Virus record (IMG/VR): IMGVR_UViG_2617270976_000016
Location: 1 to 23,498 of that record
DNA length: 23,498 nt
From: a virus
Lineage: Duplodnaviria > Heunggongvirae > Uroviricota > Caudoviricetes
Direction: 5' to 3' (one strand)
This document shows, piece by piece, positions 888 through 12,009 of the stretch. A program made the position numbers and the translations under genes. The notes under the pieces were generated by a model. It made no database searches. It was not told the origin of the DNA and saw only the letters and a list, made by a program, of their open reading frames with translations. Position 1 is the first letter of the stretch. Each line of letters opens with the position of its first letter.

Positions 888-2849
888 ATGGGAATTATTA
901 GCTCAACCAATAAAACAAAGTCCGCATTCTATGAGCCATCTGTCGATGGGCTCAGAGCATTAGCGGTTATAATAGTTATTCTTTTTCATGCAGGCTTTAA
1001 ATGGATGCCTGGAGGATACGTTGGCGTAGATGTATTTTTTGTTATCTCTGGTTATCTAATAACAGGTATTTTATACTCAAGTAATTTAAAAAACACATAT
1101 TCGTATAAAACATTTATACTATCAAGAATATCAAGACTATACCCTGCGTTAATATCGACTCTTATTCTAACATTAATTCTTGGCTTTTTGATATTTAGTC
1201 CAAGCGATTTAGAAAGACTCGGCAAAACAATGGTTTATACATTATTGTCCGCGTCAAACTTTTTCTTCATGAATGGTTCCGGGTATTTTGACCAGTCATC
1301 TGAAACAAACCCACTACTTCATACATGGTCTCTTGCTGTTGAGCAACAATTTTATTTCTTGTGGCCTTTAATAATTCTTGCGGGTTTTAAACTAGGAAAA
1401 AACAAGTTAAAATTACTTATATTTTTGATCGGTGTTTTATCCCTAGTCTTATCGCAACTAACAATTAACTCATTCCCTACAGCAAATTATTACATGCCAT
1501 GGTTTAGGGCTTTTGAATTTGCTTTTGGAGGAATAATTTTCTTCATAGAAAAACCAAAAAGGAAAAGTTATTTAAACGATATATTATTTGTAGTTGGAAT
1601 CACCCTCATATTATATAGTGCATTTAGTTTCGGTAAGTCAACTGCGTTCCCTGGATTCAATGCTATGATCCCAGTTATTGGCGCATGTCTTTCTATACGA
1701 TATGGTGAAAAATCAAATATAGGATTTATTCTATCCAATAAATTAATGGTTGGTATAGGTGTAATATCATATTCTGTTTACCTTATTCACTGGCCGTTAA
1801 TGGTGTTTTATAAATATTATGTATTCCGTGATATCTCTACGTATGAAATGGTGTTTATATCCGTAATTCCATTTATTTTAGCTATCCCAAACTATAAATA
1901 TATAGAGAACAAATTCAGGAGAATTAACCTTAAATCTTTAAATAAAATATCATTTTTGTTTTTTGCAATGTCTATTATGACTATGTGCATTTCTGTATCT
2001 TACTTTTACTTTAATGGACTTCCTTTTAGGGTTAATGATTATTTTAAAGAGAAAATTTCTAAATCTGCAGACTTCCATACACAACAGTATGGAGGTGCAG
2101 GTTATAAAGATATAGGTGTCTACGATCTTGGTGATAAGGAAAAGTCGAAATACTCTGCCATATTGATAGGCGATAGCTTTGCTCGTCAATATGCTAGCGC
2201 GATTGACAAAAATCCTTATGGCATGAAATTAATAACATCACTTAAAGATGGTTGTTATTTTTCAATAAGAATGACCGAGTTTAATGGCGGTGCTAGAGAT
2301 GATGATTGCCCAACACATTTGATGACGGCTTTGGACATATCAAGAGATCAAAACCTTCCAGTAATTTTATCTATGCGCTGGTATGGATACAAATATATGA
2401 TTGGCCCTAAAGGTGGTAGCCCAAAAACATTTATTTCTGATAAAGAATATATTGATGAAGTTGTAAGTAATGTAAAGGAAATAGCTAATGCATTTAACGG
2501 AGTCAAGATTGTAGTGATAGGTTCAACGCCAGGAGTTGAAGGGGTTGGAGGTATTGAATCATGCGTTTCTAGACCTGATTACCTTCCTTTAGTATGTGCA
2601 AATAATCTTGTTACTAAGGAAAAGGATAACATTAATAAAAAAATAAATGAATCACTTAAAATAGAGTTATCAAAATCAAAAAACATATTATTCATTGATC
2701 CATATGACTACATGTGCAGTAACGGAGAATGTGCAACCATGTCTCATGATTATAAATATCTTTATTCAGACAACACCCACTTATCTAAAGATGGGGCTTA
2801 TGCGCTATGGTCATCAATTGGTAAAAATATAAGTGAGTATATAAAATAA
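888..2849 (+). CDS. OafA/Oac-like O-antigen acyltransferase (acyltransferase-3 membrane domain fused to SGNH-type C-terminal domain)
   Basis: 653 aa; N-terminal half is polytopic membrane protein with the acyltransferase-3 style N-terminus (…LRALAVIIVILFHAGF…), C-terminal half soluble with GDSF-like motif (ILIGDSFARQ); gene is conspicuously AT-rich and uses AGA Arg codons. Confidence 0.8.
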   Translation: MGIISSTNKTKSAFYEPSVDGLRALAVIIVILFHAGFKWMPGGYVGVDVFFVISGYLITGILYSSNLKNTYSYKTFILSRISRLYPALISTLILTLILGFLIFSPSDLERLGKTMVYTLLSASNFFFMNGSGYFDQSSETNPLLHTWSLAVEQQFYFLWPLIILAGFKLGKNKLKLLIFLIGVLSLVLSQLTINSFPTANYYMPWFRAFEFAFGGIIFFIEKPKRKSYLNDILFVVGITLILYSAFSFGKSTAFPGFNAMIPVIGACLSIRYGEKSNIGFILSNKLMVGIGVISYSVYLIHWPLMVFYKYYVFRDISTYEMVFISVIPFILAIPNYKYIENKFRRINLKSLNKISFLFFAMSIMTMCISVSYFYFNGLPFRVNDYFKEKISKSADFHTQQYGGAGYKDIGVYDLGDKEKSKYSAILIGDSFARQYASAIDKNPYGMKLITSLKDGCYFSIRMTEFNGGARDDDCPTHLMTALDISRDQNLPVILSMRWYGYKYMIGPKGGSPKTFISDKEYIDEVVSNVKEIANAFNGVKIVVIGSTPGVEGVGGIESCVSRPDYLPLVCANNLVTKEKDNINKKINESLKIELSKSKNILFIDPYDYMCSNGECATMSHDYKYLYSDNTHLSKDGAYALWSSIGKNISEYIK

Positions 2850-2912: not shown

Positions 2913-4754
2913 TTATGAAGCCAAAGTTCCGGCAACCTTCCACACTCCACCACCTACATGTATCCATTTATATGGATTTCCTGCAGATGGCGAAGCCAGC
3001 TCCCACCTTGCTCCATTGCCATATTGAGTGACACTCGCATCTGGAGGGTTATCACCATAGACATGAGCAATCCCATTTACTAGATAGCCAGTCGCGGTCC
3101 ATAGCTCAGTTCCCCACACGGAGTATTCTCCACCCTCGCTTACATAATTAAATACAGAAAAACTCCCCCCCCATTTAACTCTTGATGCTGGAGGCATATA
3201 GCATGAAATTAAATTAAGAGTTGTACCACCAACTTGGTAGTATTTACTAGTGTGTGAACCTTCAAATTCAGAAAGTGAAGAATTGTTAAATGATACATTT
3301 GACTGCGTTATTATTATAGCCTCAGCGCCACCATCTTTTACACCAACAGCCCTGAATCCATTAGCTACTATAAAAGATTGATTGACCTCAAATATACTAC
3401 CAGTTACATTCTCTACCGCACACCCATTTAATGTAATCCCAGCACATGACAGGAAAACATATGCAGTTCCATTAACCCTCTCAGGAACGCAGCATGTTAA
3501 TGTGCTATATGTTACGTTATTCATTTTTATGGCGTGGCGAGAGCAGTCTCTAACATAGAGATTATTTATATTAAATGATGTTCCTGCGGTTGCAACAACA
3601 TATCCATCCTGAACATCATGCAACATAAAATTAGATACATTCTGCAACCAACTATCACTGGTATAATACCCTGTCATTCCTCTATAACCATATACATCTT
3701 CAATTCGTGTATTGTAACTAATAGCGCTATATATAATATATTCAGACTTTCCTGTTGCAGTGCATTTTAGACTCAACCCAATTATTCTTGTGCTTCTTGT
3801 TTGTGTTCCGCTTAAATCACCAGCAGTGTCACTATCCATGTCTACCGCAGCGATAAAGTCTTTGGAAAAACTGTGCGCCACACCCTGCCACATGCGATCC
3901 GGAACTGTTTTAATATCGTTACCTGTTTTGATTAATCCACAGGAATCCATACCACAGCCCTCCAGCGTGACACGTGGAGGCACGATAGCGCCATACTTAA
4001 TATCGTAAAATCCATTGAGCCTGAGCGTACCTCCTTCATATAGCAGGCATGCAGTCAGCCGTTCAAAAGCATCACTGTTTTGCTCAGCCGTTCTGGAGGT
4101 CATCATTCCACCGTTCTCTACCGGGATATCAATATGGCTTCCCGTTCGCTTCCAGCGTTTTCCTCCTGCCGTTACAAAGATATTTACTCCATCGTCAGCC
4201 TCTGAACTGGAAAAGGCTATAAACGTTCCTCCACCAAGACCTGGTGTATCAGGGTAATATCCGCGAACTGTTATATTTTGATTTGTGAATGAAGGCTCAA
4301 TAGTTCTTAGTGTCGCAATGTCAGGACAGATACCGATATATTTTTCACCATCTAAGCTGAGTAGATCTCCACGCAATGAAGCATCACCCACGCTAACCCA
4401 CGCACCTAATCCAATCCCACCTGTCGTTTCTGGCGTAGAGCCAGCAGGAACGGTTTTAGGTAATACACCATCCCAACGGTAATACTCGCCAGAGGTTTCG
4501 TCGTGCAATGCCTGATTAGTCAAGGTTATCTCTGCGCCAACCTGAAATGATTTTATTAGTATCCAACCCATTTTTGACAATGATTCTTTGTACTTTGACT
4601 CCATACCATGCCAAGTAAGACGTGGATTACCAAAACGATCAGGCCATAACTCATTGGATTGATCATTAGAAAGATGATCGAAGTTCTGGGCGTTATCGTA
4701 CAAATCTTTTGCAGCAGAAGACCCCAGCGGATTGCCAGTATTATAAGTCGTCAT
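2913..4754 (-). CDS. Tailspike / receptor-binding depolymerase (beta-helix type)
   Basis: 613 aa; Gly/Asn/Thr/Ser-rich repetitive middle typical of right-handed beta-helix tailspikes; last gene of tail module; RBS GAGG upstream of ATG at 4754. Confidence 0.55.
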   Translation of the reverse strand: MTTYNTGNPLGSSAAKDLYDNAQNFDHLSNDQSNELWPDRFGNPRLTWHGMESKYKESLSKMGWILIKSFQVGAEITLTNQALHDETSGEYYRWDGVLPKTVPAGSTPETTGGIGLGAWVSVGDASLRGDLLSLDGEKYIGICPDIATLRTIEPSFTNQNITVRGYYPDTPGLGGGTFIAFSSSEADDGVNIFVTAGGKRWKRTGSHIDIPVENGGMMTSRTAEQNSDAFERLTACLLYEGGTLRLNGFYDIKYGAIVPPRVTLEGCGMDSCGLIKTGNDIKTVPDRMWQGVAHSFSKDFIAAVDMDSDTAGDLSGTQTRSTRIIGLSLKCTATGKSEYIIYSAISYNTRIEDVYGYRGMTGYYTSDSWLQNVSNFMLHDVQDGYVVATAGTSFNINNLYVRDCSRHAIKMNNVTYSTLTCCVPERVNGTAYVFLSCAGITLNGCAVENVTGSIFEVNQSFIVANGFRAVGVKDGGAEAIIITQSNVSFNNSSLSEFEGSHTSKYYQVGGTTLNLISCYMPPASRVKWGGSFSVFNYVSEGGEYSVWGTELWTATGYLVNGIAHVYGDNPPDASVTQYGNGARWELASPSAGNPYKWIHVGGGVWKVAGTLAS

Positions 4755-8393: not shown

Positions 8394-8863
8394 GGCTCAG
8401 GCCACTCCCTGTTAAGCGCAATATCAATGATGCTGCTGTTGATAATGTAATCAGGAAAATCAGCCCAGCCAGGAGCCAGAACAGGCCTTTCCCACAATTC
8501 CAACGTGGCCGTGTAGCGCCAGTAGTTTCCGCCTTCAATTGTCGGCCCCTCATAGATATCCACGAAACGACAGACATAAACATCAACAACGCCTAACGGA
8601 GATCGAAGAGGCATGTTAAACCAGTCAGCGCCATCCTTAATGGTGTCCCTGAACCATACCTCAAATAGTTGAGCTTCCGGATCCGTAAGCAGCCATGCAA
8701 CCGAGGCCTGAGTTGGCGTTGAAGTATATAATCTCCTCTGCCTCGCCCTGCCGGATGTGAGTTCGGTTCTCAGTAATGGGCTAACTGGCTTTAACCCGAA
8801 CCCTTCCTGCAATGGAACAGGAAGGTAATCATTCGGATAGTTAATGCTGGTCGTTTTAGCCAT
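8390..8863 (-). CDS. Phage tail protein (distal tail protein-like, immediately after tape measure)
   Basis: 157 aa; start overlaps tape-measure stop as TAATG at 8861-8865. Confidence 0.4.
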   Translation of the reverse strand: MAKTTSINYPNDYLPVPLQEGFGLKPVSPLLRTELTSGRARQRRLYTSTPTQASVAWLLTDPEAQLFEVWFRDTIKDGADWFNMPLRSPLGVVDVYVCRFVDIYEGPTIEGGNYWRYTATLELWERPVLAPGWADFPDYIINSSIIDIALNREWPEP

Positions 8864-10189
8864 TAACCAGTTCTCCTGTTAGTGTTCCAGCGCATCATTG
8901 CTTTCGAAATGTCACCTTTCCCACTGGCAAGGTCGCTGGCTGCCTGTTGATATCCAAGTTTTGCCCCCTCTGCCATGGCTTGCTTCATCATGGAGATCTG
9001 AGTATCAGACGGATCACCGTTAACATTCATGTTAATAACGGGAGAGAAGCTTGCTCCGCTGGTTGATTGTTGATTTACTCTGTCCAGTGTTTCATCAAGC
9101 TTTGCTGACGTCTGAGAGGTCACAACTCGCTCACCTTTCTGGAGCAACCATGTTCCTGTTTCCGGGACGCTATCAATACCATCGTGCGCCATACCTGCCA
9201 GGGCAGAAGTACCAACTGCTGCAACAAGTGGTGCAGTTACTGCCGCAGCTGTTGCCATCGCTGCAGGTGCAAGCGCGGGACCAACGATAGGAATTGCCGC
9301 TGTCGATGCGTATGCTGCGATTTGAGCCTGCAAAGATGATGCCTGTGCGTTTGCCAGCATTGATGCCGCTGCGCTTGCCTGAGTGGATTTACCTACCAGC
9401 AATTGCACTGCCTGATATACCAGCCATTGCGCCGCCATATCAGAAAGGGTTTTAATGATTGTTTCACCAAGACCAGAGAAAATATTACTGAAGAAATCAC
9501 CTAAATCTTCTGCACCGTGCACAAGGTCATTAAGGTTGTCAGAAATAACCGAGGTTGCTCCACCAAGAATAGAAGTCATCGCATCTGCAGCAGTCTGGTA
9601 ATAATCAGCTGATTTATCAGCATAATCATTCAACGAGTCCATTATCCCGCTTTGCCAGTCGCCCATCTGAGCATCAGACTTTTTGTAGTAGTCCTCCTGA
9701 ATATCAAGACGGTCATCAAGCGCCTGCTGTAACGCTGCCGTTTCCTGGTCATAAAGCGATTTGCTTATATCACCACTTTGGTACTGTTTCTGTAGATCTT
9801 GCTGCCTGTCGAGAAAACTACGATGGATATCCAGCAATTCCTTCATGCGCTGGCGAGTCTTGTCTCCCATACCTGCGCCGATAAAATCAGAATCATTAGC
9901 TGCCTGGTCATTCTGATTTTGCTTACGTAAATTAGCGGTAAATTCGACAAGTTTCAGATTTTCTTCGTTGGCTTTTTTAAGTGAGTTGAGGCGATCTATC
10001 TCAGTAGCAAGTTGCTCAAGTCGCTCTTTCTGAGCTGCATTAATTCCTGTTAATTTCCCAGATGTAAAATCAAAACGCAGCTTCTCAAGCTCGGTTAGAG
10101 GCCAAACAGATATCGGAATGGAACGCTGGCATAAACCAGCACAACGAAGTACGCCAGCAATGATATAGCGGGGCGATGTCTTGCCCCTT
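8863..10189 (-). pseudogene. Tail tape-measure protein, 3' remnant (N-terminal part deleted)
   Basis: Ala/Gly-rich hydrophobic C-terminal region typical of tape-measure proteins; frame is open with no start codon from 9870 up to a stop near 10190; first ATG only at 9870; no upstream head or tail-tube genes. Confidence 0.5.
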
Positions 10190-10271
10190 CACGCTGGTAG
10201 AACATCAGGACAAGGACAATGACTGCACAAATACCTGCATTCACCATCGCTGACGGATCACTTGTTACCAT
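10095..10271 (-). CDS. Small two-helix membrane protein (possible holin/antiholin-like)
   Basis: About 58 aa from ATG 10271; two hydrophobic segments; start overlaps the end of the upstream holin-like gene. Confidence 0.3.
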   Translation of the reverse strand: MVTSDPSAMVNAGICAVIVLVLMFYQREGARHRPAISLLAYFVVLVYASVPFRYLFGL

Positions 10272-10653
10272 TGCTGGCCCCTCCTCCACGGAATCGCGAA
10301 AGAATACTGAACAGGCTTCCCAAATCCTGACTGTTGAAAAATGTGAGCACTTTGATTGTCATCGCCGCCACTACAACAGCACCAAGTGCGTCTAATGGTC
10401 TGTCACTATACCCGGTAGCCTGTGACAACTTTGAACCAACCAGGCCAGCAGCAAGAACGCCAACAATGAATGACGTCATGAAGTAAGCAATCAATCGTAC
10501 TCGTGTGATATTTGCCGCTGTCGCTACATAAAATACTGCACCAGCGAATGCGCCAAATACCACGCCATAATCAATACCGGTTGCAAGACCAAATACGCTG
10601 GCTCCCATCAGGCCACCAGCCGCAACCGTAGTGCCAGAAACAGGATCGGACAT
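10258..10653 (-). CDS. Holin-like membrane protein
   Basis: 131 aa from ATG 10653 with strong RBS GAGGGGG; Gly/Ala-rich transmembrane segments; first gene after the Q-proximal cassette. Confidence 0.45.
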   Translation of the reverse strand: MSDPVSGTTVAAGGLMGASVFGLATGIDYGVVFGAFAGAVFYVATAANITRVRLIAYFMTSFIVGVLAAGLVGSKLSQATGYSDRPLDALGAVVVAAMTIKVLTFFNSQDLGSLFSILSRFRGGGASNGNK

Positions 10654-10695
10654 TAAGCCCCCTCTTATTGCTGTGAGTCCTCTCAAAACGAGGGG

Positions 10696-10730
10696 ATAAA
10701 AAAAGCCACTTTAATGTGGCTTATGTTTTT
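10696..10730. terminator. Intrinsic terminator downstream of the orphan membrane-protein gene
   Basis: Hairpin AAGCCAC-TTTAAT-GTGGCTT with A-run before and T-run after, so it can act on either strand. Confidence 0.45.
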
Positions 10731-10746
10731 GAATAAATTTTGAAAA

Positions 10747-11352
10747 TTAGTCATTAAGATATTTATTAGCGTCTGATATAAAACCAGAATATCTTCCTGT
10801 CCAGCCCATAGAATTCTCCATAGTGGATATATGTTTCTTTATTATTGTGGAAAGATAAGTGTGAATATCATTTATTGATTTCTTAAAGGCACACCCTTTT
10901 TCGTCTTCAAGTATTGATATCAGCAAACTTACTTTATATTTTTCTAGTTCAAGTAATGCATCCGACATTTTCTTTTCAATATCAGGACGTGTAAAGCTGT
11001 AACCAATGCGGCCTTCTCTAAGCCATTCGGTATGCAACTCATGAACTTTTGTGAGCTGGTAAGCATATTCACTGACATTAATTCTTACATGGGCAGCATA
11101 GTTTCTCTTGTCTTCCCTGCTTTGCTGATATCTAACCGATTCGTTATTTTGGCGTATAACATATAAAGAGATGAGAGCAGGAACCAAACCGCTTATAAAA
11201 GCAGCTATAATAGTTTCCCATGAAAATGAGGAGTCTACTGAAACTGTCGCAATTTTATCAATACTTATCGTGTCTGCTACACGTTCTTTCACATAAAGAA
11301 ATGGTATGCCTAACCACATATTGAGACCTTTATTATTTAAAAAGGCCATCAT
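10747..11352 (-). CDS. Hypothetical membrane-anchored protein (moron; no family recognised)
   Basis: 201 aa from tandem ATG ATG at 11352-11347; one predicted TM helix (WETIIAAFISGLVPALISLYVI) then helical soluble domain; markedly AT-rich; bracketed by terminators. Confidence 0.5.
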   Translation of the reverse strand: MMAFLNNKGLNMWLGIPFLYVKERVADTISIDKIATVSVDSSFSWETIIAAFISGLVPALISLYVIRQNNESVRYQQSREDKRNYAAHVRINVSEYAYQLTKVHELHTEWLREGRIGYSFTRPDIEKKMSDALLELEKYKVSLLISILEDEKGCAFKKSINDIHTYLSTIIKKHISTMENSMGWTGRYSGFISDANKYLND

Positions 11353-11386
11353 AACAAAAACCCGCACAATGGCGGGTTTCTTTTTT
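11353..11386. terminator. tR-prime-like intrinsic terminator immediately downstream of the Q gene
   Basis: Hairpin CCCGC-loop-GCGGG flanked by T-runs on both strands; the minus-strand T-run ends at the ATG of the next gene. Confidence 0.5.
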
Positions 11387-11428
11387 GTTCTGTTGCTCAG
11401 TTCGCTTTAACGTCCCGAGCCTACCACA

Positions 11429-11457
11429 ATTTAAGCACTTTCTTGCTCACCCTGCAA
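11429..11457 (-). promoter_or_regulatory. Candidate late promoter PR-prime (-35 TTGCAG, 17-bp spacer, -10 TTAAAT overlapping the Q stop codon)
   Basis: Hexamers read on minus strand; predicted transcript of roughly 60-70 nt ends at the terminator at 11353-11386. Confidence 0.35.
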
Positions 11458-12009
11458 CTTAAATCTGTCGCTATTTGTGCCGAATGCGTCACAAACTGGA
11501 GCGTACAGGATCGATTCTGCCAGACTTAGCCAAGTGTCAATGCGTCGACGACAGGTAATCAGCGGCCAGTCAGAATGTTTAGCCTGCAATTCATTGGCCA
11601 TCTGCAACTTGCTTTTACGTAGGCGATGGCGATCGACAATCACGCTATAGAGCGATCGGTAGTCATCATTCATCAGTACAGAAGCAATCACACCGTCCAC
11701 TAACAGCCCTTCTTCGTCTGAACAGAACGCCAGGCCGCTTTTATTTTTGCTGTTGAGGATTTCACGCAGGTACACTTCAAGTTCTGGTTTGCTGATACCC
11801 GCTTTCTTCATCCGGCGTAGCGCTTCGTTAATTGCCGTTTTGGTGATTTTCCCGGATGCCAGAAGCTGGTTAAACATGTTCCCACCACTACCACCGCCGA
11901 TATAAGACCAGCGGCCCCACATGCGCAACTTACCCTGTATCCAGATGCTTTCCAGAGTACGAAGACGAACCATTTCACCAGATTTACCAACTTCAGAAGG
12001 ATTAATCAT
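11431..12009 (-). CDS. Late-gene antitermination protein Q-like
   Basis: 192 aa; W-G-R-W motif region (LRMWGRWSY) resembling Q-family antiterminators; sits between nin-like genes and the lysis module; RBS GGAGA. Confidence 0.55.
   Translation of the reverse strand: MINPSEVGKSGEMVRLRTLESIWIQGKLRMWGRWSYIGGGSGGNMFNQLLASGKITKTAINEALRRMKKAGISKPELEVYLREILNSKNKSGLAFCSDEEGLLVDGVIASVLMNDDYRSLYSVIVDRHRLRKSKLQMANELQAKHSDWPLITCRRRIDTWLSLAESILYAPVCDAFGTNSDRFKLQGEQESA

Follow-up and report, generated by a model that had tools for sequence, protein, structure and literature searches.

A membrane-protein family between Q and the holin genes of enterobacterial lambdoid phages has a conserved translational leader

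The stretch of DNA analysed here (IMG/VR virus record IMGVR_UViG_2617270976_000016, 23,498 nt in full, hereafter the window) carries a prophage in which the interval 10696-11386, flagged by an earlier note made from the sequence alone, contains a single open reading frame (ORF) between a Q-like antiterminator gene and the holin genes. The reading that we favour, and to which we give about an even chance, is that this ORF encodes an accessory membrane protein of enterobacterial lambdoid phages that is made late, under Q control and tightly damped, from the first position of the late operon. The family is already catalogued as PHROG 18859 and stands out by its unusually strict position and its conserved translational leader. 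One membrane family found behind four types of Q, before several holins and with its own leader hiding the ribosome-binding site (RBS), points to a selected late membrane function, which could bear on lysis timing, phage competition or the killing of induced cells, in an interval that also hosts Shiga toxin and other medically important cargo. The proposal is directly testable, since a member of the family is present in the isolated phage LLS, which grows on E. coli K-12, and others in inducible intact prophages.

A family found in the Q-to-lysis interval

The window protein matches PHROG 18859 over its full length (E 3.2e-59; residues 12-200 of a 201-amino-acid (aa) form against profile positions 2-194 of 198), and the same profile is matched by distant relatives (5e-91 for the type found at locus L002, 1e-12 to 1e-42 for others). 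A word-indexed search returned 24 clusters, all from Enterobacteriaceae, and a profile search of 1.84 billion representatives returned 67 clusters at E ≤ 1e-3 (28 at E ≤ 1e-10), with members of about 190-280 aa; the figure of 67 counts cluster representatives at 50% identity. The label of orphan that the ORF had been given does not survive the full-length PHROG match and these at least 67 representatives, while the accompanying statement that no family could be recognised stands for Pfam, NCBIfam and PADLOC and fails for PHROG 18859, whose function is not annotated. In the literature we found no paper on this PHROG family.

The genomic surroundings were inspected in nine distant members, in 45 IMG/VR loci, in E. 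coli genomes and in phage LLS, and 65 loci were tallied by script. In 62 of these 65 the gene directly follows a Q gene, in one a methylase gene stands between the two, and the remaining two loci run into a contig end. Where Q matched our reference panel (57 loci), the gap from the Q stop to the start of the gene had a median of 106 nt (range 62-210). Four unrelated families (DUF1133, PF06530, PF06323 and PF03589) are represented among the upstream Q genes. Next downstream comes a holin, from one of at least four families with a P21-type pinholin among them, or else a DNA methylase that precedes a holin; one subfamily (70-75% identity) occurs behind differing Q and holin types. Across the 65 loci the family was seen in the Q-lysis slot of lambdoid phages only and never in other hotspots. 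The family is rare in E. coli, with window-type copies in 5 of 5,426 complete genomes and copies of the type at locus L006 in 32. Among 50,697 phage records, tblastn found no match for the window protein or the L002 type, and distant members matched phage LLS only.

The ORF is intact and, as had been described, AT-rich (35.4% GC against 48-52% in its neighbours, namely Q 48.0%, holin 49.4% and DUF968 51.7%). Family members are low in GC (30-40%) whatever their context, which therefore gives no evidence of recent import. With a ratio of nonsynonymous to synonymous substitution rates (dN/dS) of 0.11 against an 80%-identical relative, the gene is under purifying selection.

Some members depart from the window type. 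A longer subfamily (230-280 aa; proteins P0044-P0089) keeps the N-terminal and transmembrane (TM) module and has a different C-terminal region, marked by the motifs NAQVLSxNRQxWINxLRD and EWxRVKxG, the first of which is absent from the window protein. The homologue on IMG/VR contig 3300011226_000034 (L022) ends after only 372 nt at a premature stop, hinting that the gene decays now and then.

A conserved leader hairpin predicted to hide the ribosome-binding site

Among 22 aligned homologues, 21 start at the third Met of the 201-aa form, that is at the ATG at 11319, which gives a protein of 190 aa with the conserved N-terminus M-W-x-G-x-P-F and has AAGG 8 nt upstream. The earlier note had instead begun a 201-aa protein at a tandem ATG ATG; at that position the relatives read GTTATCAT or GTTATGATAAG, with no conserved start, and this reading has to be abandoned. 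The tandem ATG ATG (motif GYTATGAT) forms the 5' side of a conserved RBS-hiding hairpin whose 3' arm is the Shine-Dalgarno (SD) sequence and which in most relatives also covers the start codon (Table 1). Support for the hairpin is comparative, because the window's own fold is modest (minimum free energy -8.8 kcal/mol, z -1.7). In an alignment of 12 distinct leaders, compensatory changes occur in 4 of 7 pairs, leader cells pair in 88.9% of cases compared with 76.9% in column shuffles (none of 500 reached the observed value), and the register is best at zero slide. The distant L002 type replaces CCUUU/AAAGG in the stem by CCUCC/GGAGG, and the GYTATGAT...SD...CATG hairpin is also found behind the three other Q families.

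These alignments correct a recurring annotation error, in which the ATG of the anti-start hairpin is called as the start in GenBank entries and in phage LLS. The NCBI entry of the window protein (201 aa) takes the hairpin-arm ATG as start. The annotation of Escherichia phage LLS (L018, 3469-4103) splits the family member in two, placing the start of the 29-codon 'gene 49' on the ATG in the GTTATGAT hairpin arm and that of 'gene 50' on an ATG further inside; the conserved start (MWQGIPF) is found at locus position 3499, which corresponds to position 38669 of the phage record.

The holin gene downstream has a leader of its own, kept in all related loci compared, in which CCCCUCG...GAGAGG...AAGAGGGGG at 10654-10696 (minus strand) may pair the holin SD (CCCCUC...GAGGGG); its fold reaches -15.3 kcal/mol with a z of only -1.2. 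Sequestration of the RBS may be general in the late region, because the unrelated 111-aa cargo gene of a close relative (L003, see below) also has a paired SD.

Backbone terminators and a putative late promoter

The gene is bracketed by two intrinsic terminators, GC-rich hairpins with U-runs, as had been reported: T1 on its upstream side (hairpin at 11356-11381, -14.3 kcal/mol, z -3.4) and T2 on its downstream side (hairpin at 10703-10722, -10.1 kcal/mol, z -4.5). Both belong to the phage backbone and not to a cassette, because a relative with an empty slot (L005) keeps both, back to back. T1 is present in all DUF1133 loci regardless of cargo, a terminator at the position of T2 is present in every slot variant, and megablast conservation with E. 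coli prophages of other cargo begins at 11348, which puts T1 inside the conserved part. T1 is part of the Q module and is likely to be the tR' of the late promoter. The gene-specific part starts immediately after the T1 U-run, with the GYTATGAT leader, and the order of terminator, hairpin and gene recurs behind the PF06323, PF06530 and PF03589 Q genes, where the flanks are non-homologous.

A putative late promoter, PR', overlaps the Q stop codon. Its geometry and the next 45 nt are kept in 20 or more loci while the 3' coding sequence of Q varies, and the block upstream of T1, which every DUF1133 locus shares, is probably PR' with a Q-loading and pause region. No sigma-70-like site that could serve as the gene's own promoter was found between T1 and the start, which at only about 35 nt apart leave no room for one, and promoter-like matches nearby are about as many as chance would give (4 against an expected 3.6). 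The claim of an acquired, self-contained unit, with a terminator T-run ending at the ATG ATG start, is not supported: the terminators are backbone, as L005 illustrates, a promoter belonging to the gene was looked for in vain, and the ATG ATG serves as an arm of the anti-start hairpin.

Two stretches resemble Rfam families below the gathering thresholds, 10668-10734 (plus strand) resembling STnc350 (29 bits, threshold 60) and 11356-11434 (minus strand) resembling isrJ (21.7 bits, threshold 37); the former lies antisense to the holin leader and T2, and the latter spans the predicted short transcript from PR' to T1. Membership was rejected in both cases, the scores being driven largely by the terminators, and the resemblances may reflect homologous Gifsy-type prophage backbone elements or terminator look-alikes. 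By eye, no complementarity of the predicted short PR'-T1 RNA to the leader was seen.

An exchangeable slot between Q and the holin

The Q-to-lysis interval had been proposed as the classical cargo slot, which agrees with the DUF1133 Q-like gene upstream and the Phage_holin_8 gene downstream. When the Q-to-holin interval of the window was lined up with those of six E. coli prophages of the same type, the slot was seen to hold a homologue with 66% identity at the protein level (L001), a homologue with 24% identity (L002 and L006), an unrelated 111-aa gene (L003; E. coli GDSC2BY4G, 1643-1978), about 500 nt without an annotated gene (L004; E. coli 2017C-4173W12, 1588-2048) or nothing (L005). An identical holin (WP_008323296) accompanies the 24%-identical homologue, the unrelated gene, the non-coding DNA and the empty slot alike, and the slot is thus well described as exchangeable. 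The 111-aa cargo protein of L003 is acidic, soluble and unrelated to the membrane family, and the 495-nt non-coding insert of L004 has no convincing ORF and gave nothing in Rfam and tRNA scans.

DNA methyltransferase genes (MT-A70 or N6_N4_Mtase) can share the interval with the membrane gene, before or after it (Table 1). Relatives have a second accessory slot shortly after the lysis cassette, where an Acb2/Tad1-hairpin gene (anti-CBASS/Thoeris sponge-like) is found (L008, 3182-3475; L034, 6472-6708).

Predicted fold and topology of the protein

The AlphaFold2 (AF2) model built from a 52-sequence alignment (predicted local distance difference test score, pLDDT, 88) has an unstructured N-tail (residues 1-33), a helix spanning residues 34-103 and three further helices, together predicted to form an up-down four-helix bundle. 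The single hydrophobic segment is the first part of the long helix, with the TM helix at about residues 34-56, and the rest is helical in the model, which upholds the description of one TM helix followed by a helical soluble domain. The N-tail of about 33 aa is net acidic. On average 3.1 lysines and arginines flank the TM helix on its C-terminal side and 1.1 on its N-terminal side, with C exceeding N in 48 of the 52 members, which by the positive-inside rule predicts an N-out/C-in topology.

Conservation is uneven along the protein. The family is conserved over its N-terminal 75-100 residues, most of all in the N-terminus and TM helix, and in the C-terminal helices identity falls to about 20%; 45 columns are invariant in 22 homologues, A51, G55, P58 and A59 (201-aa numbering) are invariant, and the TM face A-x3-G-x3-A with its adjacent Pro also appears in the family consensus. 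Small-residue TM faces, known from the glycine-zipper literature, mediate tight helix packing, and the A-x3-G-x3-A/Pro face is suited to tight helix-helix packing or oligomerisation.

Profile and structure searches gave no significant match to any family of named function. The window protein had no Pfam or NCBIfam match and no PADLOC-DB v2 match at E up to 10; its 52 relatives gave no significant Pfam, NCBIfam or PADLOC match and no holin family. As regards holins, Pfam had no match for the window protein and the PHROG matches were to function-unknown families only. A family-profile sequence search of Protein Data Bank (PDB) chains returned coiled-coil or compositional matches alone, none below E 1e-3, and Foldseek returned nothing below E 1e-3. 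For the 4HB_MCP sensor domain there was no Pfam match and no second TM helix, the likeness being at fold level only. In the subfamily with the NAQVLSxNRQxWINxLRD motif, matches to a CBASS '2TM effector' (2e-3) and to a PtuB/HNH C-terminal segment (6e-5) were treated as local or compositional.

A proposed late function and its alternatives

In the reading that we favour, a constitutive late promoter would overlap the Q stop codon, and transcription in the lysogen would run for about 70 nt and end at T1 (tR'). Reading on through T1, the gene and T2 into the holin genes would be reserved for RNA polymerase modified by Q, and the gene would therefore be switched on together with lysis, as the stx genes are. 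The leader hairpin, for which covariation speaks, would block the SD (and in most relatives the AUG) and so keep output low and the off-state tight, as would fit a product harmful to the uninduced cell. The product is modelled as a bitopic inner-membrane protein, with its acidic N-tail in the periplasm and the rapidly diverging four-helix bundle in the cytoplasm. With low certainty, we place its function at the cytoplasmic membrane in the late lytic phase, regardless of the type of holin or Q; the leading candidate would be a tuning of membrane state and hence of lysis timing, and the alternative a late-period block of secondary DNA entry.

Several points weigh against this reading. The promoter, the Q dependence and the effect of the hairpin are all inferred from sequence, the candidate -10 element (TTAAAT) fails a consensus scan (PR' was missed there because this element has no A at position 2), and in the window's own modest leader hairpin the AUG is unpaired. 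The topology follows from the positive-inside rule alone, and the best structural neighbours are periplasmic sensor bundles, which would suit the opposite orientation. The slot is dispensable, being empty in L005, and the divergence of the C-terminus together with slot exchangeability is equally typical of arms-race genes of defence and counter-defence. The link to lysis timing comes from position and expected co-expression only.

The earlier note had proposed a determinant of superinfection exclusion or abortive infection, which in its explicit form would be expressed in the lysogen, basal read-through of T1 from the late promoter supplying the protein at the inner membrane. The exchangeable slot with its unrelated alternatives and the hypervariable C-terminal domain on a conserved membrane module, as in arms-race proteins, stand in its favour, as do the AT-richness of the gene throughout the family (30-40% GC) and its intactness in a defective prophage. 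Yet no promoter of its own was found, the gene sits behind a strong terminator with its RBS sequestered, neither the protein nor its 52 relatives gave a significant defence or exclusion match in PADLOC or Pfam, and across the 65 loci the family was seen in the Q-lysis slot and in no other hotspot. As tR' and the sequestered RBS predict lytic late-phase expression, unlike a classical lysogen-expressed exclusion gene, we do not think that lysogen-expressed immunity is its role and regard this explanation as unlikely.

Another possibility is that the protein is a partner dedicated to the neighbouring holin, an antiholin or accessory that would bind it in the membrane and set the lysis clock. The gene immediately precedes the holin genes, with which it would share a transcript, its single TM helix has a small-residue packing face, and the leader of the holin also looks RBS-sequestered. 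Against this, the conserved N-terminal and TM module is combined with no fewer than four unrelated types of holin, a pinholin being one of them, and one and the same Phage_holin_8 protein accompanies very different cargo or none, so that there is no sign of co-evolution with one holin. Because the conserved module spans Q and holin families in this way, we hold a holin-specific partnership to be very unlikely; more plausibly the conserved N-tail and TM helix self-associate or meet a conserved host membrane component.

A Q-triggered suicide has, in our estimate, just as small a chance. Here the Q of a superinfecting phage, or of a prophage induced by the SOS response, would read through T1 in a lysogen, even a defective one such as the window, and the premature membrane protein and holin would kill the cell ahead of the invader's maturation; the tight off-state given by terminator and hairpin would suit such a device, Q, the gene and holin 1 have been kept in a prophage without endolysin, head and most tail genes, and plasmid-expressed AntQ of Gifsy-1 alone arrested growth and killed cells (PMC4825925). 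The scheme is nevertheless entirely inferential, the same gene is found in intact prophages, where it would simply be a late gene (the identical 190-aa protein occurs in those of L036, L037 and L039), and its retention in the remnant may only mirror where a single deletion fell. A related idea, still improbable if slightly less so, is that of a holin-independent, Q-gated effector, shared by lambdoid phages of four Q types, whose zipper-like TM helix would oligomerise and disable or depolarise the inner membrane, and which in lysogens and defective remnants could also act as a 'Q sensor' that kills upon arrival of a superinfecting Q; if true, such a trigger for defence would have no described counterpart. 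That the ORF is a chance ORF or a decaying, functionless remnant, as its defective prophage host and the truncated copy of relative L022 might suggest, has a negligible probability and is already contradicted by the conservation data: the dN/dS of 0.11, the invariant columns among the homologues, the 67 cluster representatives and the confident AF2 fold.

Likeness to known systems

In Shiga toxin phages, StxS is a short RNA that arises from PR'-tR' termination in the Q-to-S slot (PMC7547250). Like stx cargo, the gene sits on the same strand between Q, with its late promoter and early terminator, and the lysis cassette, an arrangement found in 62 of the 65 family loci, and dependence on Q antitermination would be expected, with a terminated RNA of about 70 nt predicted in the lysogen. 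It differs from stx in that its product is an inner-membrane protein rather than a secreted toxin, in standing behind four Q families and in having its own conserved RBS-occluding leader. The Gifsy-1 locus of Salmonella (antQ-isrK-orf45-anrP-isrJ) has a Q-like gene, then a promoter and terminator (IsrK) and cargo before the lysis genes, and read-through of the terminator after the Q-like gene gives a translationally inactive cargo mRNA (PMC4825925). A terminator followed by an RBS-sequestered cargo gene is common to both loci, whereas the cargo of Gifsy-1 is an anti-repressor and activation there is by a short RNA in trans. StxS and Gifsy-1 thus set published precedents in this slot for a short PR'-tR' RNA and for a read-through transcript that is not translated.

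The gene shares with morons, in the sense of Juhala and Hendrix, that it is a single extra gene between backbone genes, of deviating composition, followed by a terminator and present or absent among relatives. Unlike a moron, which comprises promoter, gene and terminator, no promoter of its own was found, the T2 position is occupied even in the empty slot, and its low GC is stable throughout the family and no sign of recent import.

As a small late membrane protein with a zipper-like TM face it resembles one-TM holins and antiholins (T4 T and RI, and the glycine-zipper TMD2 of pinholin S21), and its RBS-occluding leader can be likened to the control of lambda S, which is tightly controlled at translation. 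Unlike holins, it has no holin match in Pfam or PHROG, its slot is dispensable and the phage already has two holin genes; T4 T, a class III holin, is N-in/C-out with a large periplasmic domain, whereas N-out/C-in is predicted here (48 of 52 members).

P22 SieA, T4 Imm, HK97 gp15 and lactococcal AbiZ are likewise single-gene, inner-membrane products borne by prophages. Genes of this type are expressed in the lysogen or the uninfected cell from their own promoters, whereas the window gene sits behind tR', and no sequence or profile similarity to any of the four was found. AbiZ in particular is described as acting by speeding the lysis clock (cited in PMC11364771).

At the level of fold, the bundle grows straight out of the TM helix as in the 4HB_MCP, NarQ and TorS sensor domains; identity to these is 6-9%, the protein lacks both a second TM helix and an output domain, and the bundle is predicted to be cytoplasmic. 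The four-helix-bundle fold is a generic one.

Neighbouring genes and the state of the prophage

The features of the locus are collected in Table 1. On the same strand, a DUF968 gene and the Q-like gene lie upstream of the membrane gene, and the Phage_holin_8 gene and then a truncated Phage_holin_3_7 gene lie downstream. The Q-like gene matches Pfam DUF1133 (E 3e-90) and Phage_antitermQ (E 1.7e-7, 31.6 bits), as well as PHROG 753, 'anti-termination protein Q-like'.

Table 1 Features of the Q-to-holin region in the window, and methyltransferase genes in the same interval of related loci
Feature	Position	Strand	Basis
Intact ORF, long 201-aa form	10747-11367	minus	ORF and translation
Coding sequence of the 190-aa PHROG 18859 member	10747-11319	minus	ORF, homologue starts, PHROG match
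Leader hairpin, UGA.GGCCUUU paired with Shine-Dalgarno region AAAGGUC.UCA	11322-11351	minus	Fold and covariation
T1, intrinsic terminator, AAACCCGCC-loop-GCGGGUUUUU	11353-11381	minus, bidirectional in form	Hairpin and U-run
Conserved initial transcribed region, probably Q-loading and pause segment	11382-11428	minus	Conservation
Putative late promoter PR': TTGCAG (11457-11452), 17 nt, TGcTTAAAT (11437-11429)	11429-11457	minus	Read from sequence
Q-like antiterminator gene, DUF1133, distantly Q21-type	11431-12009	minus	Pfam and PHROG
T2, intrinsic terminator downstream of the gene, AAGCCAC-loop-GUGGCUUUUUUU	10696-10722	minus, bidirectional in form	Hairpin and U-run
Holin leader (10654-10695) and Phage_holin_8 gene (10258-10653, ATG at 10653)	10258-10695	minus	Pfam, PHROG
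Methyltransferase genes in the interval of related loci	L016 5833-6423; L033 4888-5916; L034 2882-3934; L018 4270-5322		

The window is a deletion derivative. Its Phage_holin_3_7 gene (9871-10289, minus strand) is cut to 64 aa, from 93 aa in relatives, and joined to the C-terminal third of a lambda-type tape-measure gene (8863-9870), and endolysin, spanin, terminase, head and tail-tube or tail-shaft genes are absent from the window. The same deletion junction, with an identical 190-aa protein, is found in metagenome contig L038. Elsewhere in the window, an AT3-SGNH acyltransferase gene (888-2849, plus strand, about 31% GC) adjoins a tailspike gene (2913-4754, Tail_spike_N) and, at the prophage end, resembles a lysogenic-conversion gene for O-antigen modification.

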